Below are positions 9,664-32,200 of a stretch of 64,000 nucleotides of DNA, piece by piece. The translations under genes and the position numbers were made by a program. Source of the DNA: Perna viridis (Eukaryota). The stretch is from positions 40,982,001-41,046,000 of the forward strand of contig CM074514.1 in assembly GCA_037379345.1 (NCBI GenBank). Direction: 5' to 3'. Below the pieces are notes generated by a model that was not told the origin of the DNA, did no database searches, and was given only the letters and a program-made list of their open reading frames with translations. Within the stretch, counting starts at the first letter, position 1. The number at the start of each line of letters is the position of its first letter.

Positions 9664-12600
9664 GTAAGTTTAGAATTTTTCTTCATAAATTTAACCAGAT
9701 GTTCTATTTGCAAAAACTCAAATCACCATGTACATTGTAGTTCGCTGGCTTGACGTCTATTAGTTTAATACCTATACATGAACCTTTCTAACTATAGATG
9801 AAACATGGTCATGTCTTACTTCCCCTGCTCGGGTTTACATCTTTCAGATTATAGTTTTTTAATCAAGTATCTTGTACTCTCTTTAAACCAGCAAACCCCA
9901 TCCCCACCTTGCGATTGCGATTGTGTCTTAGTTAAATACATCCCTACATGTACTAATTCCATATAGTTTACATGTCAACACAGTAATATTTTCAAATATT
10001 TTCCAGAAAGATGTGCTCCTATACGTTATGATATCGCATTTTATTTCAACCGAGATAACCAAGGGAATTCTGGTACATATTACTCAAGACAAAGGAGTTT
10101 TGCATTACGGATCATTGAGAAATTTCCAGTAGGATACATGCAGACCAGATTTGCCGCACATGCGTACGGCGGAAACCATGAAAAATTTTTCGACTTCAAA
10201 ACAAAAACAACTAAAGACGCTGTAATATCAGGAATTCCCTCGAGTATAAAAACGTCAGGTAGTTGGGAAACAAAAGAAAACATTAGAAAAATCTGGAATT
10301 CTATTTTTCTGGAGAGTGAAGGAGATAGAAGTGATGTTCAAAACTACTGTTTTATGTTCTCGTCGGCTGAGACAAATCAAACCTACGCATCTAGGGGTGA
10401 GAAACCAAGCACAATCATTCTGTATTTGATGGACGCTCAGGATTATTTCAATGCTGCTGATTATTCTGATGATAGAATTTCAGAGTTTGCTAATACTTAC
10501 AAAACCATCAGTAACATTTTTTCCGACTCTGAATTCACCACCATTGCCACGGATTTTACCGGTAATGCTGATTTCAGTTGCAAAACAAGTAAGTAAACAA
10601 AGGTTACCGAAGCAGTGACATATCCAGAGGATAAAAGGGGTTGGTACCCCCTTTTTATTGGATATTTTGTCTTCCATGTGTAAAATTGACAAAAAAAAGA
10701 GTAAACAATGTCCAAGCACTCCTTTGTTTCCCGAGGGACCCCGACCTGAAACCCGTCCTTTTTAAAGTTTGGTTCCGCCCCTGACTTGCTTGAAAAAAGT
10801 ATTCTTTCGAGGTAGATATAGCTGGCTTGTATTCGGTCTTTCTTGTTAGTGTTCGTATTCTGTATCGATCTACAGAATAAATCCGAATTCACCGAATTTT
10901 TATAGTTTGTTTTATTGTTATTTTTTTTCACACCACTCTCCCAGGCTAGAGGAGGGATGAGCGCTCACAAACATGTTTAACCCCGTTACGTACTTTATGT
11001 GTCAGTCCCCAGACAAAACATTTAGTCCTGTTGTTGCCGTTGTTCTTTTTATGTATATTTTATGTCGATTTTTTACTTTTATGAATAGTTTCACTTCGTT
11101 TATTTTCGTGTATGTTTACTGAAGATCAAGTAATCCTAAGAGTAAAATTAAATTTGAATACATATATAAATATATGAAGGGAGGTAATAAAAATTTTCCT
11201 GCAGCCGAAGCAGGTGCTTTCGAATATTTCTGGAATGATATACAGGCGCGCATGCTTAGAAGGTGGATTCAGCTTTCGCACTCACTAAAACTGTGATTTT
11301 GTTTCATGAATTCTTATTCTCAAATTCCAATCCCTAAAATGTTCTTGTCTCGTATCTCTTGAACTCTAATTATATTTACACCTTTCTGGTATTAGCCGTT
11401 ATTAGAAACTGAATCGATAAACTCATGGTTATTATGGTTACAGATATTGTCATAATGATTTGTTGTACTGTTATTTATAGGAAAATGAGGGACTTGCACA
11501 TCAAAACGTTTTAGGTATAATACTATTAGCACCTACAATTATACTTTTTTCTTTTTCTTCAACATTTTATCAGAAGAATTAAGGGTATTAAGAGACAAGT
11601 CATAGTTATATATCATTATTATAATAGTTGATTCTTAATTAAAAAATAGAATATTAGCATCCATATTCAAGGCATGTACATGTACATGTACGTGTATACG
11701 TCTACCAATCTAGTGTAAGGGCTCTTTTTATAATAATCTTATTCAATTTGATTTGACGGGCACTTGCCCCCCCTTCTTTTCTTTTTTCCTTTACATCAGA
11801 AAGTGTGTTTAGTGATCTCAGTGTAAGCTAGTCTGATATTGAGAAAAAAATATGATACTGCACCGTGCCAATAGTGAGTGCCAGAATTAATATTCCTCAC
11901 AGAATGTATACAGGCGCGGATCCAAGGACTGGCCTAAATCGGTAAAAAAAAAATCACCACAAGTTTTACCCCATAATATTTTTTGCCTTGCTTTGCACGG
12001 CATTTAATTTAATTTCACGCCCTCCCCCCCTTAAACTCAAACACTGGATCCGCCCCTGGTATACATGTATGTGATTTCTTTTAAAACGAATATTGTGAAG
12101 CCGTCCTATCATCAATCTTTATGAAAGCTTCATGAAGCGACAACAGAGAGAAAACAAAACAACAAAAGTTAATATCTGACTAATTGTTCGCTAACATGAG
12201 GTTCGTTAGTCTGTTTAGGTTACATATACATTGTATTTGTTATGATAAGTGGTAACTATCTTTCTATTGCAGCGTGTGGTGACAATTTCTTCGCGTATGA
12301 CTACCCATCAGAAATAACCACCAATACTGACACAGAAGAAGGTACATGTATCAGTATTAGTTGATTGCATGCGCAGACCTATGAGATGTCAGTTTCACTT
12401 GTCGATCTTATTCCTGCATTTTTTTTTTTTTTAATTTCTTATCCGTACAAACAAAACCTATAAGTCTTCCTAGCTGCTTTTTTTTATCAATACAAAAGTA
12501 CTACAGTTATGATTGTGCCTTAGTTACACAGGTTGTTCACCTCACTATATGTACATGACATGTTTGCACCATTTATCCATTATAGGTATTTAGGGCCGCG

Positions 12601-15600
12601 GAAGGGGATAAATTTGGAAATTTCGAGTGGAAAACAAATGAAGGATAACATTAAGGCGCTTGTAAGCATGAGTTATCCTTCATGCATATTCAAATAGTTT
12701 ATAATGTTTAATTTAATTTTCATATTAAATGATGCATTAAAAGGAAACAAATCAATAAATAAAAAAGCATAAGTTATTCCTGTATGACATGATCCAAAAC
12801 CGTTTTGATGTCATAGAAACTGGTATATCACTTGACAATAAGAAGGGAAATGAAAATTGGTAACTGGAGATATTAACAATAAAAGCTTAATTACAAATGT
12901 ACGTACTGCTATAGAAAAGTACGGGAAAGTTTTACACGAACTAGTCAAAATATTTTTTCACAAAATATCATAGCAAGGAAACAAACACCGGGGGGGGGGG
13001 GGTTAGGACGTCACAAAAGTATTTGAACAATTTCATTGATTATCTTGAGATATCATTGTACATGCAGACATGCCCGAAAAAGTTTTATGCTCAATTATAC
13101 TTATACATTAATTACTTATCATGTATATTTCCGTCACCGTGAACATACACAGTCATGTATTTACATGTATTATTACAGGTAAAATGACGGTTTTGATGGA
13201 TACAGCCTGGGATATATCGTGTTGCGCAGTGGTAAAACAATGGAATTTCTGGGCCAAGGCCAGTGGTGTTCTTAAGATTGGTGTATTTAGGCCAAACGGG
13301 ACAAACTACTATGCTGTTGGTTACAATGAAATTATAATACCAGGTGAGGAAAGGATGTAAAACTCTTCTTGAAACTCACAATTCTCAATCGAAATTTCTC
13401 GGTCATTCCTGATATCATTGCGCTAAAAATAATCTCGTAATCCGATGCAAAAGAAGAAATTACATGTAGCCGGAATAGTGTCCACCAGGTGGCTTTAAAA
13501 ATTTTAGTCAAAGATATCACAAGAAGTAAAGAATAGTATCCTTTTTAAGATTGGAAGAGAGAGTTAACACTTAAAAAATGTAATTCGGTGAGGTAGTTAT
13601 GATTATAATCTTGGAATCGATCGGACAAATTCCAGAAGGTTATTCCGCTTAATGCCGACGAAGTTTTTCTTCTGGGTAACGAGATAAGTTGAATATTTCA
13701 AACTGCACGCAATTTTGACATTTTTTCTTACATTTGTCGTCCATGGCTTTTTTGCAAAAAATGACTTAAAAAAGGTTTACTACCGTTGTACGAAATGTAC
13801 ATGTGTTGTATTGGCATGACGCAGTCGGAACAGCTTCACTCTTTACCCTTAGAATTCAAGGACATGCATGTTTACTGGTCGTAATTAGGTTTGAATTCCC
13901 GATTGCTCAAATACCGATAACTTAGTACATTGTAGCATCCGAAAAATGTGTATCTACATATATAAAAAATGAAACCGCGGTTTATGCTCATGTTGAAAAT
14001 TTTAAGTAAAAAGAACATGATTTAACTGCGTCTACTATCTTCTGTTTTAAGAAGATATACGGTTATAACATGATTGTACTTGTTTTATAATTTGCACATC
14101 TGATACATGTAGAAACTATAATTTACAGATCAGGTTCAATTTTCAACAAAATCCCGTTGGAAGATTTTGAGATATACTATCTTTAAGATTTGCCATGGCT
14201 TCTTTTTTGGGAATTCCTTAAATTTTGAATATAGAAAAAAAAGGTGTCAAATCTTTATATATTCCGGATATTTAGTATACACTACAAGCCCAATATACAA
14301 ATATACATGCATTAGTATCCTTCTTTTACTCATGTGTATGTGTTCATACTTTTTTACAGACTCATCCATTGGTAAAGAAGTGATAGTTGAAAATGTAGAA
14401 GGCGAAAGAATTGCCATTAAAGACGGAGATAAAATAGCTTGGTAAGGATTATGGTACATGTATTTTGTTTTCGGCCACTTCCGCAAACTAATGAAAAAAA
14501 AATAGAATTTGACTATAGAATAAATATTAAATATTGAATAGTAAATTTATTTTTCACAAGTTACAACTACATTGTATTCACGAGACGAAGTCGAGGGCAA
14601 TAGTTGTAACTGAGGGGAAAATAAACTTACTTTTAAGTGTTCAAAACTTAGCCAATCATATTAACAGCAGTGCAAATTTTGCGAAATATAATTACTCTTT
14701 CAGGGAGGGCAAATAGTTAGGAAACTATTGACCAGCCAATAGTCTTTTGGCTCGCAATTTATCAGAAAATGAAAACTACAAATGTATTCACATAAACTTT
14801 GCAAAGAAAAAGTACACTGAGGTATATGTACATGATAATTAGCATTTATTTTGTTTGTCACTGGAAGGAACGCAAATGCAAATGTCATAATGTGTACGCA
14901 ACAGTGCATGCAACAAACTATAAAAAATGTTTTTACGGCCTTTATTCCGGACTTGCGGACCAACATTTTGTCAATATTTATCTCCCGACCTCCACAAGTA
15001 GGGAATAGACAATGAATCATTGTCCAATGAATTGTTGCATTTGTCCGAAAACGTAGTCTTAGACACGGAGCAGTCAGCGGCGTCTCAGGCTATAATTTGA
15101 AACGATGAATGGCTCCAAATCGTTCAGTCGGAAGTGATGTAAATTGGAAACGACGTATGCAGTAAGGAAATGGTTGTTACTTTTAACACAGATACAATGT
15201 ACACGTTGTATGTTATAGAAAGTCTTGAGTATTCCCGTTTAATCGCGACATCAGCACTGTGAATTATGTCATCTGAGTACAAATGGCTGCTACCGTAAGA
15301 ATAGAAAAGGTAGTAGAGGTGCTCATTGCACTGTTGGCAATCAAAACGTTTTAAGTGTATATTAATTGTTGAATTCCAAACGCTTTAAACAAGGTAAGCT
15401 TTGAAAAAAAGAACGTAAATAGAAATTCTCAGGCGTAGTTTAGCTTTAAGTTTTGAGTACAGTGTACACTTGTAGCTGTGTTAAGGGTTTATTAATGCTA
15501 CAGCGGCGGATCCAGAGGGGTGGAAGGGGTTGTCACCTACCTCTTTATTGCAAAACTTGCCATTTACATGTGAAAAATTGACAAAAATGGCAAATAATGT

Positions 15601-18600
15601 CGTAGCACCCCCACCCTTTTCTGAGGGACCTCAGCTTGCACCCCCCCCCTTTTCAAAGTGTCTGGATCCGGCCCTGTTCTACATGTATATTAAGACAGAG
15701 CATTGATCAAATTTTGTACAATCATTAAAATATTTCTATCTGGAAGGCTATATCTTATTAATAACACTTCTGGAAACATCTGATTTTATGATATTTACAC
15801 TATGGAAACACTTCTAGATCATGATAATTTTGTTGGCATTGTTTTACAGTTGATAAGCTGGAAGTGGGCAACATAAGAAGCGGTTTGGTAGTGTACTTAG
15901 CCTCAACAATTATAAAATGCTCCTCATCTATGAAAATTATCATTATAATTATTTATTACAAGAATGGATAATTATGTCACTCCGGTTTTATTTATTCACG
16001 TTCAGTGGGCATTAATTTTAAACAAATATTGACATAACATGGTCTTAACAAGGTTGTATACATGAACATTGATATTTCAGGCATTCATCCGGTCGAAACA
16101 TCATTGCCTATGAGACTTGTACGACTTCGGATCGGTCAGACTGTCCACAGAATACAAAACAATTCTCTCCAGCTACTGACCCACAAGCAGGCGACAACTA
16201 CGACTTATCAACGGCAAATACTTTAACTAACAGGGCATACTCCATCATGTTGACAACTTCTGAAAGTATGTATTTTTAAAGGGATTTTAAGGAACTGTTG
16301 CTTCGACAAGGTGAAGTTGAATTGAACACTTCATATAGAAATCAAAAAGAGCATACCCGTAGACAGGAGGGTTGAGAGAGGGTGACGACGACCCCTCCTT
16401 TTGGAAGAAAACAAATCGTTGAAACTGTTAAAAATGCACTTTTAATTTAAAGTAAAATAACCCTAGTCTTCAGTTTTTGTAGTATTCTAGCACATAGAGT
16501 TGCATAACCTGACCTTTGGTTAAACGCAAAAGAAACAATGCAAATGTTTTGAAAATTTTGTATAGGTTTTCCGGTTATATTTCGAAGGAATCGAAGCATC
16601 CTTGACTGCTTTTGACGTCACTTTTCCAGATTCTGCACAGAGACTAACTTCCAGTGAGAGTGAGACGGAGTTGGAATGGAACACTGAGATTGGTACTACA
16701 GCTATCTTCCTTACTAATACGGATTTGGATGCCTTCGATGAGTTTACATATACCATGACGGAAACATCACCTAGTGGCTCCTCCTCCTACTTTGAACTGA
16801 ACATTCCAAGATGTATGTTATTATTTTATAATGATTATGAGGGCCGGAGCTATTTGTACATTTAATTTCATTAATAATGCATTGTTAGGTTGTTATATTT
16901 ATGTCACCGATGTCTCGACCAAAGAGAATATGCGAGACTTCCTATTGTACATGATGTGCGTCTGCGCTAAAACTTCAAAAACTGCATACTCACTTTGAAC
17001 AGAAACATTTTATTTTGACAGAGAATCGAACACTTAACTCAAAAAATTCTAGAACGAGATTGATACATAGATCGTGAACGTTTTATTTTTTCGCCGTTCT
17101 GTATATGAAAATATGTGTAATTTTATTCGTCTCTGCAAAAGTTGCAATCAGTATATACGTTCTGATAGCTTTCAGTCTGGTTTAAGAATCTCATAAAATG
17201 ATCCATACATGTTTGAGTCAATAAGACAAGTTTAGCTGTCTTCTAGAAAATTACACACGTATTAACTTCTGTGAAATCCTACATGATAACCAGTACTATC
17301 TTCAACAAAAAATAGCCGACGCAATAAAGTTTTGTTCTTTCTATTTATAATTTTCTTCATTTCAATCAGGGAATAACACATAGCACGCAATTTCAATTTT
17401 TGATACTGTTTGTTCGAACGCCACTTACTTATAAGTAATTGTCCAGTCGGGAAACATAATTGAGATCAGTTGATTTGCGTCTCCATGGAAGGGCGTCTTT
17501 TAAGGTCAAAGGTAAAAAGCGAAAGTACACCGACGGCGTCGAAAAAAGAACGGATGTGATAAACGAAACAACTGTACTAGACTAAGTGTTTAACCTTACA
17601 CCCCAAAATACGGCAAATTATTTCGGAGACCATCAAAAGGTCTTTAACAAGTGTAAACATACATGTACCTTTGAGAAAGCTCCAAAATGGCCAACAACAA
17701 AAATAAAAAAATCCCTGGTAACAGATCGTCTCAAATTCCTCAAAATCAAAAGGACGCAAAAGACACATTAGCAGCAAACATCTCCTGGCTTTATGTATGG
17801 ACAGGTGCGTGGAATCTGTGGAGGGTTTAATCTAGCTTTATACGGCCTTCAACATCCCTATTTTTTCCATTTAGATCTTTTTTTTTTTCATTCGCTGTCA
17901 TGCAAGCCTGCTATAATAATTGATCTAACGATACACACATATCTGCTTTTAAGCAAAACTTATGATACATGCATTACTTTACATAACTACTTATAGCATA
18001 TATCATACGTACCATTTTTATTTACATGTACATGTACATTTAGTGCCGAGAAATACAGCTTGTAATGTTAAATATTAAAATATGCAGAAAGTAAATATTT
18101 TAATGGTTACTAAAATGAAAGAAAGTCTATAAAGAATGCACATACATGTATATCTTTCCTGTAGATGAGTCAAATTATATTAGACTGTTAAAAGATTGCA
18201 CTGGCAATTCATTCATGAACATCTGCAATTATTGAATAGTCTTCCTATACAATTTCATCAAAGTTTGTACAATCACATGTACTGTACACGTACAGTAATG
18301 GAGCAGTTACACATACATCTACACGATTTTAACATATAAATTCCTTAAATCAGGCTTACATGTATCTCTCAGTACAGATACATACTGTAATGCACATCTA
18401 CATTTGATGTCGAAATTTAATTTAACGTCATATAAAAAATTATCAAACTTCGCCGTTTCTCACTATGTAATACTTTTCCTCCGTAGATTTGTAGCATGTA
18501 AATAAATGCTTAAAAAGGCCTTTTACATTTGTGCTTTTTAATACAGTAAACTTACCATTTTTATGCCATTGCTTAAAATTAATCATGTTCATAAAATGAG

Positions 18601-21600
18601 AAACGAGTCTTCTTTTACTATAGAGTTGATAAATTTAAGTTAAATACATGTTTTACTGTTACCTTTTGAAAGCTAAAAAAAATGTGGAAGTTAAAAAGGT
18701 TTTGTTTTTTATAACTAGTCCATTTAAGTACATCTCCGTCTGAGAATCAGGAAAAATGTATACATGTATAAGGTGTTGCACATTAAAGACAAAAAACGCA
18801 GAGATTTTATTGCAATTAATTATACCTGATAACCACCAGAAATGAACATCAAAGTTTTTGTAAAATATGATTTTGATAAGTCAAATTTAGTTGAAATGCA
18901 CTACAGAAAAATGGCGGGAAACTTTTTCCGCACTCTTTCCCGATATACCAGTCAAAAATATCTATGTCACAGATGCTTCAGGATAAACTTACATAGCTAT
19001 TTTGTTGTTTTCTATATGTACTCACTAAATTTGGGAAAATGATGTGCCACCCATTGCCTGGTTGTTACACAGAATGGTTCTTCATTAGGAATTGTTTATG
19101 CAACATGCAAGGAATGCCAACAAAGTTCTCTAGCCTATTATACATGTACCTAATTTTCAAAATATAAGAATAGGTTGAAAGACCGATAATTTTACTATTC
19201 CCCTCATAACCAAATGTAAATTAATACATGTAACATAAGGTTTTACATGTATGTCTGTTTCAGTAACGATTGACCTTAAAGCGAAACTTCCACTACAAGA
19301 TAGCGGTCCATATACAATAACTGTTACAAATGTGGATACTTGTGAACATACTTCTAGTGTCACAGTTACCATAGGAACTTACAATGCCGTGAGTACACTA
19401 TTGAGTATACTTACATGTACATGTACACTTGCGAGTACTACAATATGAAAACTTATAATGCCGTGAGTATTACATGTACTACATATACAATGTATACTTA
19501 CATGTACATGTAAGCTATAGTGAGTACCGCTATATTAAAACTTTTAATGCCGTGAGTACTGCATGTGCTACATAATGCCGTGAGTACTATTGAATGTACA
19601 TGTAAAATGTATACTTGCATGAACATATAAGCTATCGTGAGTACTGCAATATTAAAACTTTCAATGCCGTAATTACTACATGTACTACATGTACAATATA
19701 TACTTGCATGTACATTTAAACTGTCGTGGGTTCTACAACACATATAGATGTATTTATTCTATCGTGATTACTGCGGTATGTATACTACACAATATATATC
19801 TGTGCTCATGCTGTATGATTTTGATTTAAGTACGCTTATGCTAATGTTTTGGAGTTTAAATAAGCTAGCAGAGTCATACGTATTTAGATCGGGATGCTGT
19901 TAGTCTGCGAATGAGACTGTGTGTGATTGTTAATGCCCATAAACTTAAAAATATATTATAGTTGCAGTTTTGTATAACACTAATTATAATACTTTTTTTT
20001 CTACGCAGCCACCAATCGTTACAAATTTGCCATACATTTTGGAAATTATTGAGACTACCAGAGAAGTAATTCCATTGTATCAAATCAACGTAATAGATGC
20101 AACAAATGATCCTATATGTTGCACGATGCCCTATTCAATACCAGCCTCGTTCAACTTTGAATTAAGACAATTTAATAATTCAAATGGTAGGTATATGTAC
20201 TGTATAAATGCTTTACGTTCAAAGTATACTGTAAAAATACTATTATTTGGTACAAATATTCTTAGTTAAAGAAGAACTTTCAAATGTCAATTTGCACATG
20301 TACATGTATATTAATCAATTCGTGATATTAAACAACTTCATCATTTAAATCATTTTATTGAAAATTCTTATTTCGCTGGCAAATAAATTTCGTCATTTGC
20401 CTTACCCATTTTTCATATATTTCTTTGACGTATGTAAAACATTTACATGTATAGTATTCATAGAATCAAAGTACTCATGTCCTGAATCAATTTATCTTCG
20501 ATTGTTGCATTTTAACGACTAAAAACATCATCAAATTGCAAAAATATGGATAAGTTAAAAGTAAAGAACTGGGATTGACTTCAAACGTATCTAAACAAAA
20601 AAAGTAGTGTTATAAATGGTTAATATTGAACTCCTTGATTTAAACTCATGTATTTGCCATCGTTCTAGCAGAGTTTTATTTTAATTTGTCTTCGCCGGGC
20701 TTCCGATGTCACGAGGCGGTAACTGTACTAAAAGGTTAAGATTAAGATCAGTCCACAATTTGCTTTCAACTTAGTTGCCAGTTTTTAGTTGTTTGATGCG
20801 GCGTTTTTTTTTCTGTTTTTTTGTTTGTTTTGTTTTTGTTTTTGTTAGATGGATATGGATTAAAATATCTTCTATGAGTGTAAATAATAGAACGTTCTCT
20901 TCCGACTTGTCGGTCTAATGCAAATTAACGCTCCAATATGTAAATGCTACCCTTTTGTGTAAAATGTGGTCCCAAACAAGAGCGGCAAATACATGTACTA
21001 GCTTGATATACTCTTTCTTTGGCGCTAAACATAACATGGTTTATTACGCATCTAAGAATGAAGCATATGTAGGTACAAATGTAACTTGAGTACATCGACA
21101 ATGAACGAGTGAACGATTGGTTTAGTCCTGTATGAAGCTTAGATATGAACAACAGTACTGATAAGGATGGAGTCATTTTTTTTAATTGAGTCGTTGTCAA
21201 TTCTGAATTCAAACCAAATTAATCTGATATTTTGATTGCAGTAAAAGTTATTTACTGGGTTTGTTTGTTGACGTTAATAGCATAATTTTAAATTTGATAT
21301 ATAAGAAATACCTATAAAGGGGACATAAGCCTAAACGGAGGTTTTCAGTGGAACTATCTTCCTGCGGCGGTGTAAGAGATAATAGTAGATGTTAATAGGC
21401 TTTACAAATCGATAGGGACTGGCGACTGCTATATCAATTCTGATCTTCGATCTAAATTGATAAAAAGACATACATGCACATGGATCATAGGGGCGCCTCT
21501 GATGTTTACGACCCCTCCCAACCGCCAATCGCTAATTCTTTGCTCGGTCCTAAAATCAGAAATCTATTTACGTCCCTAACCTGAAATCCTAGGTTTTGTG

Positions 21601-23348
21601 TATTTGTATGTATTTTAAAACCTTCGTCAATAAACATCAAATGTACCTTGTAGGATTTTAATATATCTAAGACAACATTCGTAAAGAAACATTTATTGTT
21701 TTTTTGTTTTGTTATTTGTTTTGGTACATTTAAAAGGCATGTTTTTTTTAATTTGTCAATCTTTATTCAAATATTGAAGATTTTTTTATTTTTGTTTCAT
21801 TGATCAGATGTTAAAAAAGAACAGAAAAAATTTCTTAACTTCAAACATACATGTGTTTTCTTTTTGGAAAATGAAAACTTTGAACGCAGATTTTAAATCA
21901 ATGGGTTTTTAGCACCTTTTTTTTTAAAACACATTAACACTTGAGAACTGTCAAACAAGTACATTCTGTATAAAGACCAGTATTTTTGTTTTCGCAAAAA
22001 CAACTGTTGAAAGAGTAATCAAGGGAACCAAGGTTATAGCGGTAATCAAAAGAACGTAATCCAAGGACAAAGACCAGACATGGAAAACAGACACACACAA
22101 CAAAGAACACAAAGCAACTAAAATCATACATACAAAGTAACAAAAGTAAATTAGCAACTCGGACTCCACTAAAAACTGAAAGATAATTCTCTAAAAATCA
22201 GTCAATTTCTATTGTATTTTAACACATCATTTAGTACATGTATATTTACATATAATATTATACATGTACATGTATTTGATGTATCAATAGGAGGAATAGA
22301 TCTCTGGCTGTACACACGTACCAACCCTGTATTTGAGTACAGTGATATTGATTCCTACAGAGTATTCGTCTGCTGTCAGGATGCTTATGGGTCTTCATTC
22401 AGTTACCTCGTTGTGAGATTGGTAGAGGTCAAACAGGAAACTCCATACGTACCACCAGGTAAGTTACAACTACATGCCTTAATAAACATAGATTATATAT
22501 ATATATATATATTTTTATTTCCACATGTACCTGGCAAGCCTATTGAAATGCCAGAGATCTCCACGCCATACATGTACTTTTTTACTTGTAGCCAGAAACT
22601 GTAGCTATGTCTGGGACCTCGAACCCGAGTTGCTAAGCGTAGATATAGAAATTAGTTTTAGGATTTATGGGACTTAATTGATATCCGTTTTTGTGGGGAT
22701 ACATGTAGGATTCAGGACAAAACTTACGTGGGAAAGGGGTGGTGTACCCTACACTCATTATACCTTACGTTTACATGAAACAGAACATAAATGGATTGTT
22801 TGACTAAGCAGTTCTTCGTAACATTTACTTAATCAGATGATAAGTATAGTGTTACATGTTCATACATGTACATACACGTACATAGATGACCGTGCAAATC
22901 TTTTCTGAATGTAATCATTAAAGTGGTTCGTCTTGAATTGCAAAAGCTTAGTATAATTATGTTAACTTTAGCAAATTCTAAACATCAAGATTTTTCAGGA
23001 AATGCGTATATTTTCATATAAGATTTTATTGCAGGTGTTATTGGGTACTTAGGGTATTGTCCAACTCGTATATTTCATTAATAGGTAGCCAAGGATTCTG
23101 GTTGCGACATTTTACACTTAAATATATTCAATAAATTGACTAATAGTTTATATCCTTTTGTTTTCCAACTACAAATGTTTATTTGTCTTACATGTAAATA
23201 CCAGTCAGAGTAATATGGCATTGTTTGATTCTGTTTTGTTTTAATTTCAGATTGGTTTTACAGAGCTCTGATCCTGAGTTTGACTCCTATATCACTAATG
23301 ACAGCAGTTGCCTGTATCGTTCTCTTTTATTCCGTCTTCTGGTTTTAA
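9600..23348 (+). CDS. Gene A (11 exons, 632 aa): signal peptide - degenerate VWA - CC/W-rich beta domain - 2 cadherin-like repeats - C-terminal TM helix, no cytoplasmic tail
   Basis: Exons 9600-9663, 10007-10588, 12273-12341, 13179-13343, 14360-14441, 16081-16265, 16630-16812, 19264-19388, 20009-20186, 22291-22458, 23251-23348. All introns are GT-AG, phases 1,1,1,1,2,1,1,0,1,1, total 1899 nt in one open frame. Every exon has a same-length counterpart in gene B. Confidence 0.9.
10007..10588 (+). CDS. Gene A exon 2, degenerate VWA domain
   Basis: ttccag acceptor; CAPIRYDIAFYF...TRFAAH...FLESEGDRSDVQNYCFMF VWA-like pattern; A|gtaagt donor. Confidence 0.9.
10613..10783. mobile_element. MITE, GGCGGATCCAG TIR family
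   Basis: cagtgacatatccagagg...ggttccgcccctg; internal similarity to 15501-15676. Confidence 0.6.
11911..12058. mobile_element. MITE, GGCGGATCCA TIR family
   Basis: caggcgcggatcca...tggatccgcccctg. Confidence 0.75.
12273..12341 (+). CDS. Gene A exon 3 (CGDNFFAYDYPSEITTNTDTEE)
   Basis: ttgcag acceptor, gtacat donor; 69 nt as in B and C. Confidence 0.85.
13179..13343 (+). CDS. Gene A exon 4 (DTAWDISCCAVVKQWNFW...YNEIIIP)
   Basis: ttacag/gtgagg junctions; paralogous to B and C exons. Confidence 0.9.
14360..14441 (+). CDS. Gene A exon 5 (ERIAIKDGDKIAW)
   Basis: ttacag/gtaagg; 82 nt in all three paralogs. Confidence 0.88.
15501..15676. mobile_element. MITE, GGCGGATCCAG TIR family
   Basis: cagcggcggatccaga...tctggatccggccctg. 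Confidence 0.75.
16081..16265 (+). CDS. Gene A exon 6 (HSSGRNIIAYETC...RAYSIMLTTSE)
   Basis: tttcag/gtatgt; matches B 33857-34041. Confidence 0.88.
16630..16812 (+). CDS. Gene A exon 7, cadherin-like repeat 1, first half
   Basis: ttccag/gtatgt; ELEWNTEIG...TDLD cadherin-like pattern. Confidence 0.88.
19264..19388 (+). CDS. Gene A exon 8, cadherin-like repeat 1, second half
   Basis: tttcag/gtgagt; GPYTITVTNVD...TYNA. Confidence 0.88.
19383..19760 (+). repeat. Degenerate tandem repeat built from the exon 8/intron 8 junction
   Basis: aatgccgtgagt at 19383, 19457, 19546 and 19574; aatgccgt at 19663. Confidence 0.8.
20009..20186 (+). CDS. Gene A exon 9, cadherin-like repeat 2, first half
   Basis: acgcag/gtaggt; PPIVTNLP...DATNDPICC. 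Confidence 0.9.
22010..22180 (-). mobile_element. Same repeat family (copy 2)
   Basis: High identity to 54740-54903. Confidence 0.85.
22291..22458 (+). CDS. Gene A exon 10, cadherin-like repeat 2, second half
   Basis: caatag/gtaagt; FEYSDIDSYRVFVCCQD. Confidence 0.9.
23251..23348 (+). CDS. Gene A exon 11, terminal hydrophobic helix and stop
   Basis: tttcag acceptor; DWFYRALILSLTPISLMTAVACIVLFYSVFWF-TAA. Confidence 0.88.
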
Positions 23349-23369: not shown

Positions 23370-23555
23370 GCACCGATTAGCTTTTTTGCAATCAAGCAAC
23401 CATATTTTTTTCTGGAACAAGAGTTGTGGCAATATTTTTTTTTATTTTGTATATAGAACATTGTAGCTGTGAAGTATGGCTACCTGAATTGTTTTTGTTT
23501 CATTGTATGGTATTCCAAGTATTTCAACCAATGCATGAGCTTTAAGGATCAATCA

Positions 23556-23911: not shown

Positions 23912-25502
23912 TTTGAGAACCTACGCAAAAAAGTAGTTCACATATTTATTGCACTTGTTTTATGTCACTGATGGAATAGTGCCAAGTGAACTTATAGTAC
24001 AGCTGATATTTATATTATAATTATTAATATATTGATACATAAAATAGGCACTGTTATACATGTAATCTGAATTTATTTTTATGTCCTATTTGTGTGAAAT
24101 GTACATGTATAGGGGAATTCCCGTTCTATATTTAGCTCATTGAGTATCTAGTACATGTAGCCGGTGTCGCAATCCTAGGTAATACATACATTTACAACGC
24201 TTTTGGTGTAGAATGGAAGCATTTATGTGATTTACAATCATCTAAAGTTCCATTCTGTTTTACCTGTAAAATCAGGCATTTTTATTAGGTACTTTGACTA
24301 AATATATGTAATACATCCAAAAACAACCGAAAAGCCATTTAGATATATTTCGAAGCATCTGCGGGGCGTAGACATTCTAAGGAATAGGTGCGGGAATATA
24401 CTCCGTCATTTTCAATATTTACGATATTTCAATATTTTAAGATCATTATCTTAAAAGGGCAAATTCAACATATACTTTAATGGTTGTTAATGACATAAAG
24501 GGTATTACATGTAATACATGCACTTTAGTATTGAAATAGAAGCTCGACGTTTTTTTTTCTCTTTATGTGCCACTCCTAAAACACATTTAACCTGATTCTT
24601 AGAGAGAAGAGTTTATTTGATAAGGTTTATAAACCTTTTTTAAGGTAGAAACTCCATAACACATTGAACCAAATGAAATTAGCATTGAAAAGTATGGAAA
24701 GTGACATTAATTAGTGATTTGTCGCCTTGATACTAAATGCAAGGAATAATGGTATTATTTAGAGACAACTCGTCCTCCTGGGAAAAATGAAAATAGCCAC
24801 AATGGTTTTCACTTGATACAGGCATTCTACATGTAGAAAATGAACATCGTGGGTTAAACCAGATTAAGTGGTTTTCCAAAACATATTAAGCTAATTTGAA
24901 ATTGTTTAAAAAGATTTGGTAGAAATGTAAAAATGTTTTTATAAATGGCTTTTCTAGTTGAACAATACAGCGGAATGATGGATGTTTTTACATATACATG
25001 TACATCTTGAGGAACAAGACAAAGGACATGTAATTAGAAATCAAAACAGACGAAAATAAACCCTTTTTCTAGAGGTTTTACTTATTTGTACAAGTAAATA
25101 AAAATAGTTTAAACAATGACGAACGTAGCTCTATTTTGTACCTTCTCTGAATTGACATTATTGCATTAAAAGAGGAAATTTAAAAAAAAATGTTTTCTGT
25201 GCTTACTTTTAAGCATGGTAAGAATTTGACTTTCGACAATGTTTTACATGCAAGTAAGTGCATCACCACTGCAAACAAAAATGTTTTAGCTGTTGCTTCA
25301 GCTGGCACAATATGGTTATCTTCTCTTGAATGAAAACTTTTTTCCAGAGACTGTTTTACATGTAAATATTTCCAACTACTTAATTACATGTAGATACAAC
25401 ATATATTCCCAACGTCCATGATCTGGATGGATAAACGAATTGTTTACAACAATGTACTCCTTCACTGATTTTTAGAGGGTGTACATGTTAAATGTTAGTC
25501 CT

Positions 25503-25831
25503 TGTAAGAATCAGGAAGTCTGTGAAACATGGTATGATAAAACCCATTATTTTGAAAGTGTAATTTGACTATTTTTACCACCAGAATCAGGGGAAAACTG
25601 ACAAGACTTTCCATATCATGCAGGACCATTTAGTTAAAATGTACTGGAAATTAATGTTTCAAGGGCAGATAACTCTGTCAAAAACCTCATTTTTCTAACA
25701 TTCTGTTGAAAAATTTCTGAACAAAGGCAGTGAAGCAGAAATCAAATATAGAAAGCATCATTGAGTGAAATTATATAGTGAGATCGGTGTGTTTTGTTCT
25801 GATTTTATTCCCATTTTGCCTGATTCTTACA
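25503..25831. mobile_element. MITE with tgtaagaatcagg TIR
   Basis: tgtaagaatcagg/cctgattcttaca; partial relatives at ~5800-6100, 32230-32612 and 55530-55850 (shared caagggcagataact-like core). Confidence 0.75.
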
Positions 25832-25975
25832 AATACTTAGTAATACACTTGAGTGTAATGCTTGTGTAACCAGTTGTACACGTAACTGTTACAAAACAGA
25901 ATATACACTGTAGATACCAGACCGGAAAAACCACGCCTAAAACACAAAAAATAAATATTTAAGTTACATTTTAAT

Positions 25976-26395
25976 GGAGGTAGACCTTGGGTAAGGGACA
26001 TAATTTTAACTCCCGAAATCTTTGTTTTTATCATTCAAAATCTCACCATAGCCCTTCTAGTAATCATTTAAAAAAGAATGAAACCGATTCAAGTTACTCT
26101 GATGCTTACACGAGACTTATGTATAAATTCTTTACACAAACAGGCGCGTAGCTGAGGCCAAATTGAAGTGTAGGCAAAATTACAGTGTAGGCAGGTCCAG
26201 GGCGGAGCCCTGGTAGTGGGTCAAGGGGGGAAATAGCGTTTTAGAGCATCATTCATGCCTCTCCTTGATGTATTTTATCTAAAAAAAAAATGGCAAAATT
26301 AAGTGCAGGCAAAAGCTTTTTTGCCTAACGGCAGCTTTGTCGGACATGTAACAATGATTTGAAAGGGTCTTACCCTTTAACCTAGGTCAACACCC
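25976..26395. mobile_element. TTAA-type (Kolobok/piggyBac-like) MITE with a nested CAGG MITE (26141-26337)
   Basis: ggaggtagaccttgggtaagggaca...ctaggtcaacaccc|ttaa; same family as 38391 and 40052. Confidence 0.7.
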
Positions 26396-26927
26396 TTAAA
26401 TGAAATGATCGAGAGCGTTATATGTGTATAAAAGTACACAATATGGTTTTGACAAGTATCAAAAATTAAACAAATCTTTTTACATTCATCTAGATTACAA
26501 AGAAAATAAATTAAGCATGTAGTAGATGTTTTTCATTCTAAATCAACATATACCCTTTCCTGTATCGAGTTTCTGCTCCACAATAACCTCACTTGTGATG
26601 TCGAATAAGCCAGGAATCCCTCATTTCAATTGGTAGAATTATCCATAAAAGTATAGAACTACTGGTGCCAGTATGTAAAGACCACAATCAAGCGATCAAT
26701 TAGTACTGACATCAAATTCGTTGATTTCTTTTCAAACAATCGAAGCCAAATTCAAACTTAATCAACTAGAATGATACTGTTTTTCATATACAATGTCTCA
26801 ATTTTGACAGAGACACAATGGCAGTTTACAGCACTAAATCGAAACATATCATGCCTAACATATTCATGAAATATAGAGTCTAATAAAATTTCATCACTAC
26901 TGACCTTTTATGGTCGTCATTATTAAT

Positions 26928-27424
26928 GATTGATTGATTGATTGTTGGGGTTTAACGCCCGAGCAGCAATATTTCAGCTATATTCAGGCGATGAACATGA
27001 AATGATGATGATAAAAAAAGGGATGGGACACCAGGATAATAGGGTCGACAAATTTTGATTGCCAAAAGATAAAAGGGAGGGATGGGCAGGATAGGGCAAT
27101 TTTGCCTCCTCTGGCGGAGCGCAAAGGTTCCTACTTCTATCGAATACCACAGCGGGGTTCTTTAAAGTGCGAAGAACGTGGCATCTTTTTCATCACTGTG
27201 CACCACTATGGTTTGTGGTCAGGTTTTCGGTATTATAGCCTTCCAACCCCAACATGTATTACGCCAGGGGTACCCAATTCCACCACCTAGGGCACACATC
27301 CCATTTGCTCTGTCGGCAGAGCGCCTAGCCTCCGGCTAGTTAACTAAGCAATATTTAGTCGCCTTTTACGATAACCTTAGCGCTGCTGCTGGCCTATTCC
27401 GTTGACACCCGGACCTGCACGGGG
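26928..27424 (-). mobile_element. SINE-like element with (CAAT)n tail and degenerate TSD
   Basis: (gatt)n tail; flanks tcattattaatgat/tcatcacgaatgat; 3' part repeated in the opposite orientation at 49850-50075. Confidence 0.75.
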
Positions 27425-27496
27425 CTCATCACGAATGATGTATTCACCTGTACCATGGGAACCAATTTATACACCGGGTGTGACAATGTAGTTTAC

Positions 27497-27643
27497 CTTT
27501 TTCTCTTTCGTCTACTCCGGACGTGATATTCATGAGCAACTCGGTGGGTGTTTTTAGAAAAGGAGAAGATGCTTAAATTACCCTACCGTTGCATCCGATC
27601 CATGCTCCCAGTTTTTAGTGGAGTCTGGGTTACTCATTTACTT
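27497..27643 (+). mobile_element. Same repeat family (copy 3, 5' part)
   Basis: gagcaactcgg...ttaccctaccg...tttttagtggagtc. Confidence 0.7.
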
Positions 27644-28369
27644 AACATGGTATATAACAAAATAGTTTTGCATTATGAACAAAGTCATAATTATGAGTAC
27701 AAAAAACCCGAATCTCCGTCATAAACAAAGTCTATAGCTAGACACTACATTGATTTAACATCATAAAAATTCGTACATCGGACAAAGTAATTTGATGGGT
27801 CATTTTACGCGTTATAGCTTCATAGTGATAAGTTCGTTATGCATTGTCGCGATTCTAATTAAAATGTCATAAAACAGTTGCAGCGTTAATAAAACAATTA
27901 AAGTACTGCTCCGTTTAATAATCGTGGAGGGTTTTTGATTGTTATAAAATTTAGACTATCTATATTATATGAGATACATGTACGCTCGAACAAGAAAAGG
28001 TGAACATTTATGCAAATCTTACAAATGCATTTATCTTAAAAACAAAATATGTTTTATTTTTACAGATTGTTGCTTTCTGCGTAGACAACAATCGACAATA
28101 ACTTTTCATGATCTCTATAAAGACCGATTACTGTTTTATATTTTAACTTTAAACCATGACTCCATACATGTCAAATCGTTAAGTTATTACGTCCAACTTC
28201 AACCAGTACAAAATTAGTCACAGTTCTATTATTTAGATTTGACCAGGCACTAAAATATCATTATCATGTTTATTTCAACGTACCCTTCCTCTTACAGTTC
28301 GATTGGTTATGATTTAGAGCTTTCTACCTGAACCAAACATCAACAATTCTGTGGATTGGATTTTTACAG

Positions 28370-28433
28370 ATGGAATATTTATTACGTTACATTGTTCTCC
28401 TCCTCTGTCATGCTGAAATTTTTTACTGTACGG
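28370..28433 (+). CDS. Gene B exon 1, signal peptide MEYLLRYIVLLLCHAEIFYCT
   Basis: ATG directly after tttttacag (an upstream UTR exon is possible); G|gtatgc donor; 64 nt. Confidence 0.75.
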
Positions 28434-29167
28434 GTATGCAGAATCGAAAATTTAATATTTTATTCATTCGATTTTTTTCTCATTATTTTGTTAATTGATT
28501 GTGTTTTCAACGAATTTCTGATATTAAATTATGAATATTAATTACCTAATTAAATTGTATGTCAGTTGCTTTGTAAACTTGAAATCAATATGTTTTGCGG
28601 GTTGTTAGAATACCTCAACTATAATTTAAAACTTTATTGATCTATTCCGCATTTCATTATATGTTATTTTTATCAAGGATGGTGAGTTTGTGTATTGTTT
28701 TCAGTTTTTAGTATGGAATAACATAAAATAACGAAGCAAATTTTCGTCGTTCCCTCCGCGGGACTCGAACTCATACCGCTGTGACATCTATGGCAACACC
28801 GCCTGCACTAAGTCCAGCGCCCTAGAACACTCGGCCAGCTAAGCTATATAAAAATATAGCATTCGCTGGCCGGGTGATTCTTCCTCGTAGGATTAATCTA
28901 GGGCTGTAACTTAGTAACTGTAACTATATTTTTATCTGGCCGAGTGGTCTAGGGCGCTGGACTTAGTGCAGGCGGTGTTGCCATAGATGTCACAGCGGTA
29001 TGAGTTCGAGTCCCGCGGAGGGAAAAACAAAAATTTGCTTCGCAAATTTGACAGTTCTAACATCGTTGGGAATTTTTCAGACCCTTCTATAAGTTTACGT
29101 TATCTTCCCTATATCAAATTGATCCGATGGAGCAGTGTAGAGAATAGAGTCGTCACATTCTGAGACG

Positions 29168-29207
<40 letters not shown>

Positions 29208-32200
29208 GAATAAAAACACATGTAAACAATACATTTTTTATTGTTGTAACACCTTCTTCTATTTTTTTTTCTATTGTTTGTGTATGTTTTGTTTTGCATG
29301 TTTTTTCTTTTTTTTTTGCGATGACCTTAATAGAATAAAGGAACGATGTACTCATCTGTTTCATGTATATAAATATCTTTCAGAGAGATGTGCCCCAATT
29401 CGTTATGACATTGCATTTTACTTCAATCGCCATCGACAAACAGGGTCCTATACATATTATATCAGACAAAAAAGTTTTGCAGAGGTAATAATCGACAAAT
29501 TTCCAGTAGGCTACATGCAGACTAGATTTGCTGCACATATATACGGGGGAACTCATTCTAGATTGTTCGACTTTAAAACCAAAACAACTAAAGATGCCGT
29601 AAAAGCAGGCTTTCCAGAAAATGCAGATAAAACAGGGAATTCCGAAACTAAAGAGAACATCAGAAAGATCTGGAATTCGATATTTCTCGAAAGAGAAGGA
29701 GACAGAAGCGATGTTCAAAATTACTGTTTCATGTTCGCTTCTGTTGAAACCAATCTGACGTACGAGTCCAAGGGAGAGAAACCAAGCTCCATAGATCTAT
29801 GGATAATGGATGCTCAGGATTACTTTAATCCTGATGAATATTCTGATGATAGAATTGATGAGTTTGCTAATAAGTACAAAGTCATTTCGGACGTTTTTTC
29901 CACGACAGTATATAACGATATTGCTGCGGAATTTACTAGTAACTCGGCTTTTGATTGCAAGACAAGTAAATACATAATATGTAGAAACCTTTAATCAATC
30001 ACTTTCAGCCATTCTTTACGTACAGGTGATTATTCCCTTAGATTGTTGCCTTTTCACAGTTTGATAATTTAGTATTATCCCCTTCACCTTCTTTCAGGTT
30101 ACACAAATGTTTTATAATGCTTATCTTCCAAAAATGACCATATTACGAACTGTAACTGCGGCTTTTTTTTTTTTCAAAAGTACATTTTTTTCAGTTTTTC
30201 AAAATACAAAAAAAACTACATGTGTATTTAAAAAACGATTAATGTAGTAATTGCAATTCTTTTATATTTGTGTAAACAATCGATTAGTCAAGTTGAAATT
30301 CAATGGCATATTCAGAGAATCACCTACATGTAAGGGGTTCCACTAGGGGCACAAAGCAACCTTGTATCTCTCGCAGAGGTGGTTTTACGTCATCAGGTTC
30401 TGAGGCCCGCTCAGAGCAAAGTATACGATATTACTGATAGAGCCGATATCATAAAAAATTGTAATATTCTTTTTTATTTATAGTAACCTAGATAACGTAT
30501 AAGTAAACGATACTTTAACTCCAAAGAGTGTTATCTTTTTACAGGTTATTGCATACATGCAGTAAAGAATTATTGCAAATTATGTGTTACTATTTTAGAT
30601 CGCCACAAACTGCACTTTAAATGTCGTTGTAGTGTGCGGCGAGAACTTCTTTGCATATGACTACCCGTCAGAAATAACCAGCACTGCTGATACACAGCAA
30701 GGTACATTCCGGGGGTTAATGTTTGGATAACAAAATACATCGGCATCATGCAAGCAATGCTTTTCTATAATTATTTATCATTCTAATCATGAAATGCAAA
30801 GTAGGCTCATATTAATATTTTCTCCTAAAAATATAAATCTAAAACATAATAAAACGGTGTTTAATCAATGATTTAGGTCAAGTCCTATAATTAAAGGATA
30901 CATGTACCAGGTGGTATCAAAAACGTATTCATCTCAATTGAAAACATGCAATGTTGTAGTAAGTGGAAATTAAGGAGGAAGACGTAAGGTATGGGACACA
31001 ACTCTTACAAATCATTGGAACGTTTGTATTCTAGCTGTTTTTTTTTTTTATAAAAATCTCATGTAAGCATCTGATACTGTTCTGTTTTAGAATGAAAGTC
31101 TTGTGAAATTGAATATGACACAAACATATCACTGATTTCAAGAAATGTGTCCCCTACCTTAGGTCTAACCCCTCTACGTTGTCTGTGAACTGTATGTAAC
31201 ACTCGGACGTACAGTAAACGTACTCAGTTGTAAACGTACTCGGTTGTAAACGTACTCAGTTGGACTCGATAAGTACATGTAGGCCGACATTATGAAGATT
31301 GTGTAATTTAAAGATCAAATTAAATACATGTAAATGGAAAGAAATTTAAGATATAGGTTAACTTTTATGTTAATATTTACGATAATATCGTAATTAGTTC
31401 AATTCACTCAAAGCTTGGAGATGTTTCGCCGAAAAGTAATCAAGCCACCGTGACAGCCTTGTAATCATAAAGATTGATATTTTACATTTGCGGACTGTTC
31501 TCCATTTAAAGACTTACATGTAAAAAACACATATAAAACCAGTCCAATACTTCAATTAACACGTTATAGGGTGTATTTAATCTGGTGAAGTAACATAATT
31601 TTATTTCTGTTCGTTATCTTAAGGGGTCATGACTGTTTTGATGGATACAGCCTGGGATATATCCTGCTGTGCAGTGGTTAAACAGTGGAGTTTCTGGGTG
31701 AAAGCCAGTGGTTTATTAAATATTGGAGTTTTAAGACCTAACGGAACAAACTATTATGTTGTCGGTTTTAATGAAATCATCATACCTGGTAAGTAAATGC
31801 ATAACTGCAACTCTACAATGGTATGAACTTTCCATTTATACATGTGCCATATACTATTCCCAATTCCACACTATCGAAACACCTCAGCCTTTCTAGTTAC
31901 ATGAAAGAAAACTTCGGAGGCACTTGGCGGATGGATGTGTTCGGAATTTGACCGATCCGATTCTAAAATTATAGTTAAACTGGTAGAATTTTTACCATAT
32001 ACTTTTTTTCTTAGCTCCTCGCTTAGCGCCAAAATTCTTCAAAGTTGGAAGAGATGTTCTTTATTTCTAGTGATATCCAACCAAAATTTATAGCGCCACC
32101 TGTTGGATAGAACTACTTTGATTTCGGATATGACTACAATGCTGGCGAATTTTTCAAGAAGAAATTCTTTCTGTCTAAGAGGTTATTTTAAGTGTATCGG

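Follow-up and report, generated by a model that had tools for sequence, protein, structure and literature searches.

In the mussel Perna viridis, two tandem genes, here called A and B, encode predicted cell-surface, membrane-anchored proteins in which the VWA domain at the tip differs far more between the copies than does the stalk beneath it, with the changes genuinely concentrated on one surface of that domain as modelled. Our preferred reading, to which we give about even chances, is that these genes encode a receptor or adhesin of mytilids not described before, and that selection driven by its ligands makes the metal-free VWA tip diverge in episodes while the stalk is held constrained. The fast tip likely tracks a changing binding partner; positive selection as such is something that we infer. 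Bivalve receptors for microbes, symbionts and gametes are mostly unidentified; this small, expressed and conserved family, in which the tip evolves at 3-5 times the pace of the stalk across three lineages, offers a concrete candidate.

Two tandem genes and their products

Exon models built from the window, that is, the whole stretch of 64,000 nucleotides analysed here, give the following layout.

Gene A, 9600..23348, + strand: 11 coding exons, 632 aa
Gene A exons 1-6, + strand: 9600-9663, 10007-10588, 12273-12341, 13179-13343, 14360-14441, 16081-16265
Gene A exons 7-11, + strand: 16630-16812, 19264-19388, 20009-20186, 22291-22458, 23251-23348
Gene B, 28370..38930, + strand: tandem paralog of A, same 11 exons, 632 aa
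Gene B exons 1-6, + strand: 28370-28433, 29384-29965, 30633-30701, 31624-31788, 32642-32723, 33857-34041
Gene B exons 7-11, + strand: 34530-34712, 35216-35340, 36170-36347, 36865-37032, 38833-38930
Exon 2 of A, 10007..10588, + strand: VWA domain without MIDAS and without a helix between strands 4 and 5
Exon 2 of B, 29384..29965, + strand: VWA domain that departs from A at 56/194 residues, with dN 0.205 and dS 1.13
Middle domain of A, exons 3-6, aa 217-382, 12275..16264, + strand: no Pfam family; beta-rich, low-confidence model
Two cadherin-like domains of A, exons 7-10, aa 383-600, 16630..22457, + strand: assigned by language-model features only (0.90-0.91)
Last exon of A, 23251..23348, + strand: hydrophobic helix up to the stop codon (B: 38833-38930)
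Gene C, 40273..56093, - strand: older paralog facing B; exons predicted only, without RNA check

Exon lengths are identical between A and B, and AG/GT is found at 20 of the 20 junctions in these models. The A protein runs from a signal peptide through the VWA domain, an unnamed middle domain and two cadherin-like domains to a C-terminal hydrophobic helix, with no cytoplasmic tail by exon model and hydropathy; Cys24 and Cys213 likely close the VWA domain. The truncated end is common to A, B and the Mytilus orthologs, and no remnant of a tail was found downstream of the last exon of A. A GPI anchor was considered for this end, but a tail-less transmembrane segment is preferred because the end is homologous to the transmembrane segment of tailed relatives. 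All 10 introns of A are joined in RNA contigs (three runs from three studies), and an extra exon near 15851 was rejected, since exon 5 is spliced in frame to 16081, a junction that RNA contigs also contain. For B, single contigs span exons 2, 4, 6 and 9, 10 in three of four runs. Both genes are expressed, one run holding transcripts of both; among the raw-read runs, one has almost no depth over the A exons and another has none over the B exons.

The cadherin-like assignment of the stalk is a qualified one: the best named feature hits fall in the cadherin clan in 10 of 10 cases, but only about 153 features are shared and the model has a pLDDT below 50 there. No Pfam match to the cadherin repeat (PF00028) was found, P0004 giving VWA as its sole family up to an E of 0.5. 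The nearest named look-alikes of the middle domain (Lectin_like, PHR and DUF4082, at 0.82-0.84) serve as leads only. Gene C is predicted to combine a signal peptide, a Thr-rich exon, a TSP1-like exon, a VWA domain (52948-53529, 21% identical to that of A), the same stalk exons, a transmembrane segment and a cytoplasmic tail of about 300 aa.

The A+B clade has a bootstrap of 100 in three of three domain trees, and comparison of the sequences marks the two genes as old tandem duplicates whose duplication postdates the split from Mytilus. The family is otherwise found only in mussels. Its orthologs are uncharacterised VWFA-domain proteins of Mytilus (XP_071129380.1, XP_052068612.1, XP_076074353.1, XP_063445296.1 and VDI63643.1), which share the domain order and tail-less end of A and B and are 43-44% identical in the VWA domain; one locus was found per Mytilus species, in contrast to the duplicated pair of Perna viridis. 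Scans of metagenomes turned up no DNA of relatives. Six Mytilus ortholog identifiers are named in no paper of the literature searched, nor did that search, which leaves outside it most subscription journals and supplements where the genes may be listed, return a paper on the family; passages of PMC5549309 make no mention of it.

The VWA tip and the distribution of its changes

The VWA domains of A, B and C score 43.1, 30.7 and 68.6 bits against PF00092, relative to a curated Pfam cut-off of 23.8. A sequence search of the PDB returned collagen VI alpha3 as sole match (E 3e-4), and a search with exon 2 of A found no longer relatives among 603 candidates. The fold comparison rests on the AlphaFold model of a Mytilus ortholog (P0115), the single-sequence model of A exon 2 reaching a pLDDT of only 32. 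The VWA part of the P0115 model is a Rossmann-like alpha/beta fold, with pLDDT mostly 75-93; its top match is VWF A2 (3zqk; Z 21.4, rmsd 2.4, 175 aligned), and it also matches integrin I domains (Foldseek E 3e-10; Z 21.0, rmsd 2.6 over 178 residues). The DxSxS motif after strand 1 is absent in either register from A, B and six orthologs. The column of the MIDAS Thr, in the helix 3-4 loop, holds Trp in A, Ser in B and Val in Mytilus, and that of the MIDAS Asp, after strand 4, holds Ser in A and B and Ile in Mytilus. Read from the aligned residues, the MIDAS has been lost in all members examined. The first-pass annotation had placed the first two variable loops on a MIDAS ligand face; the VWA fold and the clustering on the MIDAS side stand, but the MIDAS itself does not.

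The first counts hold exactly: aligned without gaps, A and B differ at 56 of the 194 residues of exon 2 (71.1% identity) as against 10 of 157 in exons 8-10 (93.6%). Exons 8-10 favour the contrast most, other stalk exons differing more (7/23 in exon 3, 7/28 in exon 5 and 11/61 in exon 7); against exons 3-10 as a whole (53/385) the VWA excess has a Fisher p of 2.5e-5. The variable segments singled out earlier are present (10051-10077 vs 29428-29454, 10225-10269 vs 29602-29646 and 10498-10572 vs 29875-29949), as are the invariant core segments in both genes. The structural elements concerned are:

Loop after strand 1 and helix 1 of A, 10051..10119, + strand (B 29428-29496): 10/23 different
End of helix 3 and loop with the MIDAS Thr position of A, 10225..10269, + strand (B 29602-29646): loop 7/9 different
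Strand 6, next loop and last helix of A, 10498..10572, + strand (B 29875-29949): 13/23 residues differ

These changes had been described as radical and loop-bound. By mean BLOSUM62, those in the top loops are indeed more radical than stalk changes (-0.31 vs 0.74, p=0.005), yet no more so than those elsewhere in the VWA domain (-0.31 vs -0.07, p=0.45). The cluster in the C-terminal helix is variable, but sits on a side face rather than the MIDAS face. With faces assigned from the secondary structure of the model and textbook VWA topology, not from 3D distances, A/B differences occupy 25/53 top-loop and 6/52 bottom-loop positions (p=8.5e-5), and the mean height observed for the changes is attained in only 2 of 192 circular shifts. 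The variable residues are not scattered in A/B, nor is the skew generic for VWA domains. None of 153 disjoint control VWA pairs (pooled top 0.33 vs bottom 0.35) reaches the A/B top-minus-bottom difference of 0.48 over strands 1-4, the control maximum being 0.39, and A/B owes its extreme place in this comparison to a nearly unchanged bottom face (1/27) no less than to a fast top. Split by motif, top and bottom values are 0.36 vs 0.32 in MIDAS-less controls and 0.31 vs 0.38 in MIDAS-bearing ones. Top-face enrichment is significant in two of the eight pairs tested, and is reversed in P0006/P0124 (top 19/51 vs bottom 27/51).

A fast tip recurs in Mytilus. M. edulis and M. californianus differ at 59/188 VWA positions vs 9/157 in exons 8-10 (top 26/49 vs bottom 10/50), and M. 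californianus and M. coruscus at 25/188 vs 2/157, the exon 11 count for M. coruscus being left out owing to a fused gene model. For the pair M. edulis/M. galloprovincialis, counts are 8/188 for VWA vs 15/380 for the stalk, with no top-face enrichment among edulis-complex alleles. The loop-1/helix-1 segment is the fastest here too (16/22 between M. edulis and M. californianus): it is 68-73% changed between species whose stalks differ by 9-11%, and runs at 9-12 times the stalk rate in four of six pairs. If the stalk is given the A/B value of 0.116, the proxy dN/dS of this segment is 1.1-1.45, with intervals that include 1; synonymous divergence between Mytilus species is not given in the passages of PMC5647807 and PMC9063065. 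Sites variable in A/B and in Mytilus overlap, with an odds ratio of 4.3 (p=2e-5), or 2.7 (p=0.004) on a second alignment.

A third lineage is known from metagenome-type assemblies, and its variants may be a mixture of species, paralogs or chimeras. Four of them, full-length and nearly identical, differ at 23/196 positions in the VWA domain as against 11/381 in the stalk (p=5e-5) and 2/262 in the tail. Across 14 VWA variants, 15 sites hold at least three residues, and of 210 site pairs, 84 do not pass the four-gamete test. The variable sites are confined to a C-terminal patch (41/103 vs 9/81, p=1e-5), a different surface without overlap with the A/B sites (odds ratio 1.0), and the top loops vary little. 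Because the tip is fast in Mytilus and in this lineage as well, the trait belongs to the family and is not a product of the A/B duplication. A patch moving between lineages would fit ligand-driven change better than fixed loose loops.

Competing explanations

Diversifying selection had been proposed at first pass, but A/B dN/dS lies below 1 in every codon class, so that we can only infer it: 0.32 (0.18-0.53) for the top loops, 0.42 (0.20-0.79) for the three MIDAS-side loops and 0.49 (0.22-1.04) for the best hand-picked codon set, two sequences at dS of about 1.2 affording little power. PMC5647807 reports a genome-wide mean dN/dS of 0.119. Values below 1 favour the main rival, a relaxation of constraint in which, once the MIDAS was lost, the outward VWA face binds nothing specific and drifts, while the stalk and the face packing against the next domain stay constrained; we regard it as possible but doubtful. 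The disappearance of MIDAS residues throughout the members examined, the nearly invariant bottom loops (1/34), the slight top-face lean already present in MIDAS-less controls and the lack of exon 2 polymorphism in covering contigs all agree with it. Against it, the A/B skew is reached by 0 of 59 MIDAS-less control pairs, loop-1/helix-1 has changed in Mytilus far beyond its stalks, and the third lineage varies at another patch while its top loops stay quiet.

Gene conversion is improbable as the whole source of the contrast, with 3' exons homogenised after duplication and a VWA domain that only looks fast, but it has contributed. It had been noted that an equally raised dS in exon 2 would point this way, and this is half borne out: A/B dS is 1.13 in exon 2, 1.02 in exons 3-6 and 0.45 in exons 7-10 (3' range 0.45-0.54), about twofold higher in exons 2-6 than in 7-10, and exon 7 holds a tract of excess identity that points to conversion there:

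Identical 62-nt A/B tract in exon 7, 16671..16732, + strand (B 34571-34632): permutation p 0.001-0.0015

The tract lies within a 42-codon segment whose 35 scored codons hold a single synonymous difference. Beyond the tract, exons 7-10 still have fewer synonymous differences (49/158 vs 91/212, p=0.02), and in exon 8 the two copies disagree at 1/42 positions, as against 23/42 from Mytilus. At the level of sequence, partial conversion of the 3' exons is established, and it accounts for the roughly twofold dS part of a sixfold dN contrast (0.205 for VWA vs 0.034 for exons 8-10). The dN/dS contrast nonetheless remains 2.8-fold (0.18 for the VWA exon vs 0.064), the same contrast appears in Mytilus with its one locus found per species, conversion cannot sort changes to one face inside exon 2, and the A/B introns are unalignable, so that tracts must be short or old. 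As sole cause, conversion is largely refuted.

Ongoing balancing selection, under which exon 2 would be hypervariable among alleles in the manner of allorecognition or immune receptors, finds an echo in the VWA variant swarm of the third lineage, but we consider it very unlikely. The excess polymorphism sought in exon 2 is lacking: no other letters occur in three of three covering contig runs for A and three of three for B, a small and biased sample chosen by full match to A exon 2, in which other exons carried 5 coding SNPs. Of the 24 listed runs, from seven studies, 20 contain every one of the 56 words sampled from A exon 2; the runs are ranked by match and rare variants are lost from contigs, which biases the test towards invariance. 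Finally, a single locus represented twice, as two haplotypes or through duplication in the assembly, is what the tandem order and equal exon lengths of A and B might suggest; this is refuted and has next to no probability given a dS of 0.45-1.1, unalignable introns, expression of both in one run and letter-for-letter matches to each exon 2 from independent studies.

Under ligand-driven selection on the tip, the reading that we prefer, episodes of selection would retune what the MIDAS-less VWA domain binds while the stalk is kept constrained. The variable patch would be a putative binding site, binding would be metal-independent, and the partner may be a changing foreign or non-self surface, whether microbe, particle, gamete or other cell. 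A and B would now differ in specificity, and, being tail-less, might use tailed relatives like C for signalling, or else compete with them. A fuller picture, which we offer tentatively and think rather unlikely as a whole, is that of a family of non-self receptors in which a metal-free VWA tip lacking a helix is joined to an unnamed beta domain and two cadherin-like repeats. Tailed members would signal, and tail-less ones would act as decoys or partners. The binding patch, driven by an arms race, would have moved across the surface between lineages, and the metagenome lineage would hold a recombining swarm of variants. A versus B amounts to a natural loop-swap experiment. If the patch truly moves, this would be a VWA domain that has re-sited its binding surface after MIDAS loss; if selection is not found, the case reduces to ordinary paralog divergence with partial gene conversion.

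Comparison with known systems

The integrin alpha I domains (alpha1, alpha2, alphaL, alphaM) present the same fold at the tip of a membrane-anchored stalk, but identity is 15-17%, and A and B lack the DxSxS, Thr and Asp of the MIDAS, the propeller or beta partner, and the helix between strands 4 and 5. That helix is also missing from VWF A2, and VWF A1 and A3 bind ligands without a MIDAS, on side faces. The terminal Cys pair probably takes the place that the long disulfide has in A1/A3, and would then block unfolding of the A2 type; VWF is a secreted multimer, whereas A and B carry a single VWA domain on a membrane stalk. The group of mussel byssus PTMP1 and collagen VI-like VWA repeats matches the VWA model in fold (4cn8, Z 20.4), and multi-VWA matrix proteins are the nearest sequence relatives outside the family (18-33%). 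These are secreted matrix proteins with several VWA domains, and their repeats, unlike A/B, are not skewed towards a single face. Variable-tip surface receptors under diversifying selection include paired immune receptors as well as gamete-recognition and allorecognition proteins. Their domains differ from those described here, where A/B dN/dS is below 1 and exon 2 is invariant in covering contigs, but they likewise carry a fast distal domain on a conserved stalk and, as in this family, keep tailed and tail-less paralogs side by side.

The A/B genes and their relatives

Genes A and B, tandem paralogs predicted to encode a mussel surface protein, carry the only close copies of this VWA domain in the Perna viridis genome (E up to 1e-8). 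In A, RNA contigs connect the exons across all 10 introns (three runs from three studies; a fourth, of raw reads, had almost no depth), and in B, exons 2, 4, 6 and exons 9, 10 each lie within single contigs in three of four runs. Introns of the two genes are no longer alignable.

Genes and sites (window coordinates unless prefixed)
9600-23348, + strand: gene A, 11 coding exons, AG/GT ends, 632 aa
28370-38930, + strand: gene B, 11 coding exons of lengths identical to A's, AG/GT ends, 632 aa
10420-10480 (residues 148-165 of the Mytilus ortholog P0115): site of the missing helix between VWA strands 4 and 5
40273-56093, - strand: gene C (predicted exons), older A/B paralog with Thr-rich exon, TSP1-like exon, VWA and long cytoplasmic tail
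G000:C4:6952429-6971467 (L006-L008), - strand: D1, paralog resembling C at a distance of 34 Mb, with an exon of Thr/Asp repeats
G000:C4:6930000-6937400 (L004-L005), - strand: D2, decayed copy whose VWA is partial and tail shortened, with a stop codon in frame in the counterpart of exon 6

The A/B protein consists of a signal peptide, a VWA domain scoring above the Pfam cut-off, a 166-aa middle domain matching no Pfam family, two domains that language-model features alone mark as likely cadherin-like, and a hydrophobic helix (by hydropathy) with the stop codon at its end. In the Atlas, the middle domain (12275-16264 in A, 30635-34040 in B) most resembles unnamed clusters from sponges and annelids (0.92-0.93), and it may therefore be a widespread, unnamed invertebrate domain. 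Intron 1 of B contains a likely MITE, a near-palindromic element of ~310 nt (28732-29042; 82% arm identity) highly repeated in RNA contigs. Directly after A exon 8, a tandem minisatellite (19405-19731) copies the final bases of that exon together with its donor site several times over and could supply alternative donors.

Named orthologs of A/B are found in Mytilus, at one locus in each of five species, and likewise end without a tail; the public gene models P0120 and P0138 are fused with neighbour genes and bear the misleading names INO80E and PKD1L2. Trees of the VWA, middle and stalk regions each unite A and B with bootstrap 100, which places their duplication after the split from Mytilus. 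C and D1 share the long tail and are 57% identical in the VWA and 63-80% in stalk exons. Reverse-transcriptase-like ORF fragments were noted by eye in introns of C (43874-44546 and 45971-46608, both - strand).

The alignment-based model of P0115, confident in its VWA part, matches VWF A2 best, together with integrin I domains, collagen VI and PTMP1 (Z 20-21). The first-pass annotation had placed the first two variable segments on a MIDAS ligand face; the loops do lie where a MIDAS would be, but the MIDAS itself is absent, and the third segment, the last VWA helix, occupies what we take from textbook topology to be a side face. In an alignment to canonical VWA domains, no DxSxS occurs in A, B or their orthologs, whichever register is tried, and the MIDAS Thr and Asp positions are taken by Trp/Ser/Val and Ser/Ile. 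A, B and their orthologs also lack the helix that normally joins strands 4 and 5, which C retains: the alignment has a gap at this place, and the model forms no helix (local pLDDT about 54).

Divergence between A and B

The counts first reported were exact, with 56/194 residues differing in exon 2, which encodes the VWA, and 10/157 in exons 8-10. The latter are the comparison most favourable to the contrast (exons 3-6 differ at 32/167, exon 7 at 11/61), which stays significant against all of exons 3-10 (53/385, p=2.5e-5). With elements taken from the model and directions from standard VWA topology rather than 3D coordinates, differences affect 25/53 residues in the top loops against 6/52 in the bottom loops (p=8.5e-5). 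From 578 VWA domains kept of 610 (search hits plus family members), 153 disjoint pairs from outside the family, 12-45% divergent, gave equal differences for top (0.33) and bottom (0.35) loops. All of them stay below the A/B gap of 0.48, the largest being 0.39, so the A/B skew is real and not generic to VWA domains, and it owes as much to a frozen bottom as to a fast top. The gap is 0.22 for edulis/californianus and 0.30 for C/D1, and top-face skew is significant in two of the eight pairs compared.

A versus B rates (Nei-Gojobori with bootstrap)
Exon 2: dN 0.205, dS 1.13, dN/dS 0.18 (0.10-0.28)
Exons 3-6: dN 0.105, dS 1.02, dN/dS 0.10
Exons 7-10: dN 0.051, dS 0.45, dN/dS 0.11
Exons 8-10: dN 0.034, dS 0.54, dN/dS 0.064

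Equally raised dS in exon 2 had been proposed as a sign of 3' homogenisation alone. The dS there is indeed about 2-fold higher, but dN/dS is still 2.8-fold that of exons 8-10, the two factors making up the 6-fold contrast in dN. This dS step, together with an identical stretch of 62 nt in exon 7 (16671-16732 in A, 34571-34632 in B; permutation p 0.001-0.0015) and synonymous differences that remain fewer in the 3' exons outside this tract (p=0.02), suggests that the 3' exons have been homogenised. In exon 8 (19264-19388 / 35216-35340), A and B differ at 1/42 residues, with dS 0.64, and from Mytilus at 23/42, a pattern of rate shift or old conversion.

Within Perna viridis, the expected excess of exon 2 polymorphism did not appear: RNA runs X1, X3 and X7 (A) and X1, X15 and X19 (B) hold no other letter there, and contigs of exons 4, 6 and 8 yield five coding SNPs, two nonsynonymous. 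Since the few runs were picked by match to A exon 2 and contigs lose rare variants, this absence of any sign of balancing selection is a weak result.

Recurrence in Mytilus and a third lineage

Mytilus edulis and californianus differ at 59/188 VWA residues and 9/157 in exons 8-10, californianus and coruscus at 25/188 and 2/157; edulis and galloprovincialis sequences have no VWA excess (8/188 vs 15/380). This replication excludes gene conversion as the main cause. Mytilus-variable sites overlap A/B-variable ones (odds ratio 4.3; 2.7 in a second analysis). The loop-1/helix-1 segment, chosen from A/B, is changed at 15-16 of 22 positions when the edulis group is compared with californianus or coruscus, 9-12x the stalk rate; its protein-only dN/dS proxy, assuming the stalk at the A/B value of 0.116, is 1.1-1.45, with intervals spanning 1.

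Third-lineage proteins (from metagenome-type assemblies)
P0124, P0130, P0132, P0135: full-length
P0143-P0180: VWA-only

These proteins form a separate clade whose tail is homologous to that of C (E 2e-30), and motifs surrounding a conserved Tyr are common to C, D1 and this lineage. Among the four full-length variants, which are near-identical, 23/196 sites of the VWA and 11/381 of the stalk vary; three of these variants differ at 2/262 tail sites. In a set of 14 VWA variants, the variable sites favour the C-terminal half (41/103 vs 9/81), in helix 4, the loop following it, the helix-less loop, strand 5 and helix 6, and overlap neither the A/B nor the Mytilus sites (odds ratios 1.0 and 0.9). 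A fast tip is thus family-wide, whereas its location on the MIDAS face is not. Across these 14 VWA variants the mean difference is 18 residues and 84/210 informative site pairs are incompatible. This swarm (P0124, P0130, P0132, P0135, P0143-P0180), mosaic in its site patterns, may comprise alleles, paralogs, species or chimeras, and is a stronger candidate for balancing selection than A and B.

A proposed binding patch and its precedents

Selection on binding specificity, as first suggested, fits a variable tip that is real and recurs in both groups, but A/B dN/dS stays below 1 (0.18 in exon 2; top loops 0.32, 0.18-0.53; best subset 0.49, 0.22-1.04), and the pair, with little power at such divergence, demonstrates no positive selection. 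We give about an even chance to a metal-free binding patch retuned by episodic selection. Gene structure, expression, the variable patch, its recurrence and the conversion are observed; the binding, its partner and the selection are what we infer from them. The last helix would most likely anchor the protein in the membrane, and the cadherin-like repeats and middle domain would form a stalk onto which the conserved VWA bottom packs. An exposed patch would bind a partner without metal, and episodes of selection would alter it from species to species and, once the gene had duplicated, from A to B, with gene conversion slowing divergence of the 3' exons. The main rival, relaxed constraint following loss of the MIDAS, we consider rather unlikely.

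No paper on this gene family was found in the literature searched, including passages of PMC5647807, PMC9063065 and PMC5549309, and the architecture with its shifting patch is undescribed there. Conserved stalks that bear variable tips are an already known pattern. VWF A2, the top fold match, likewise has no helix between strands 4 and 5, an absence common to it and the A/B family, and the adjacent tailed (C) and tail-less (A/B) forms are reminiscent of paired receptors.
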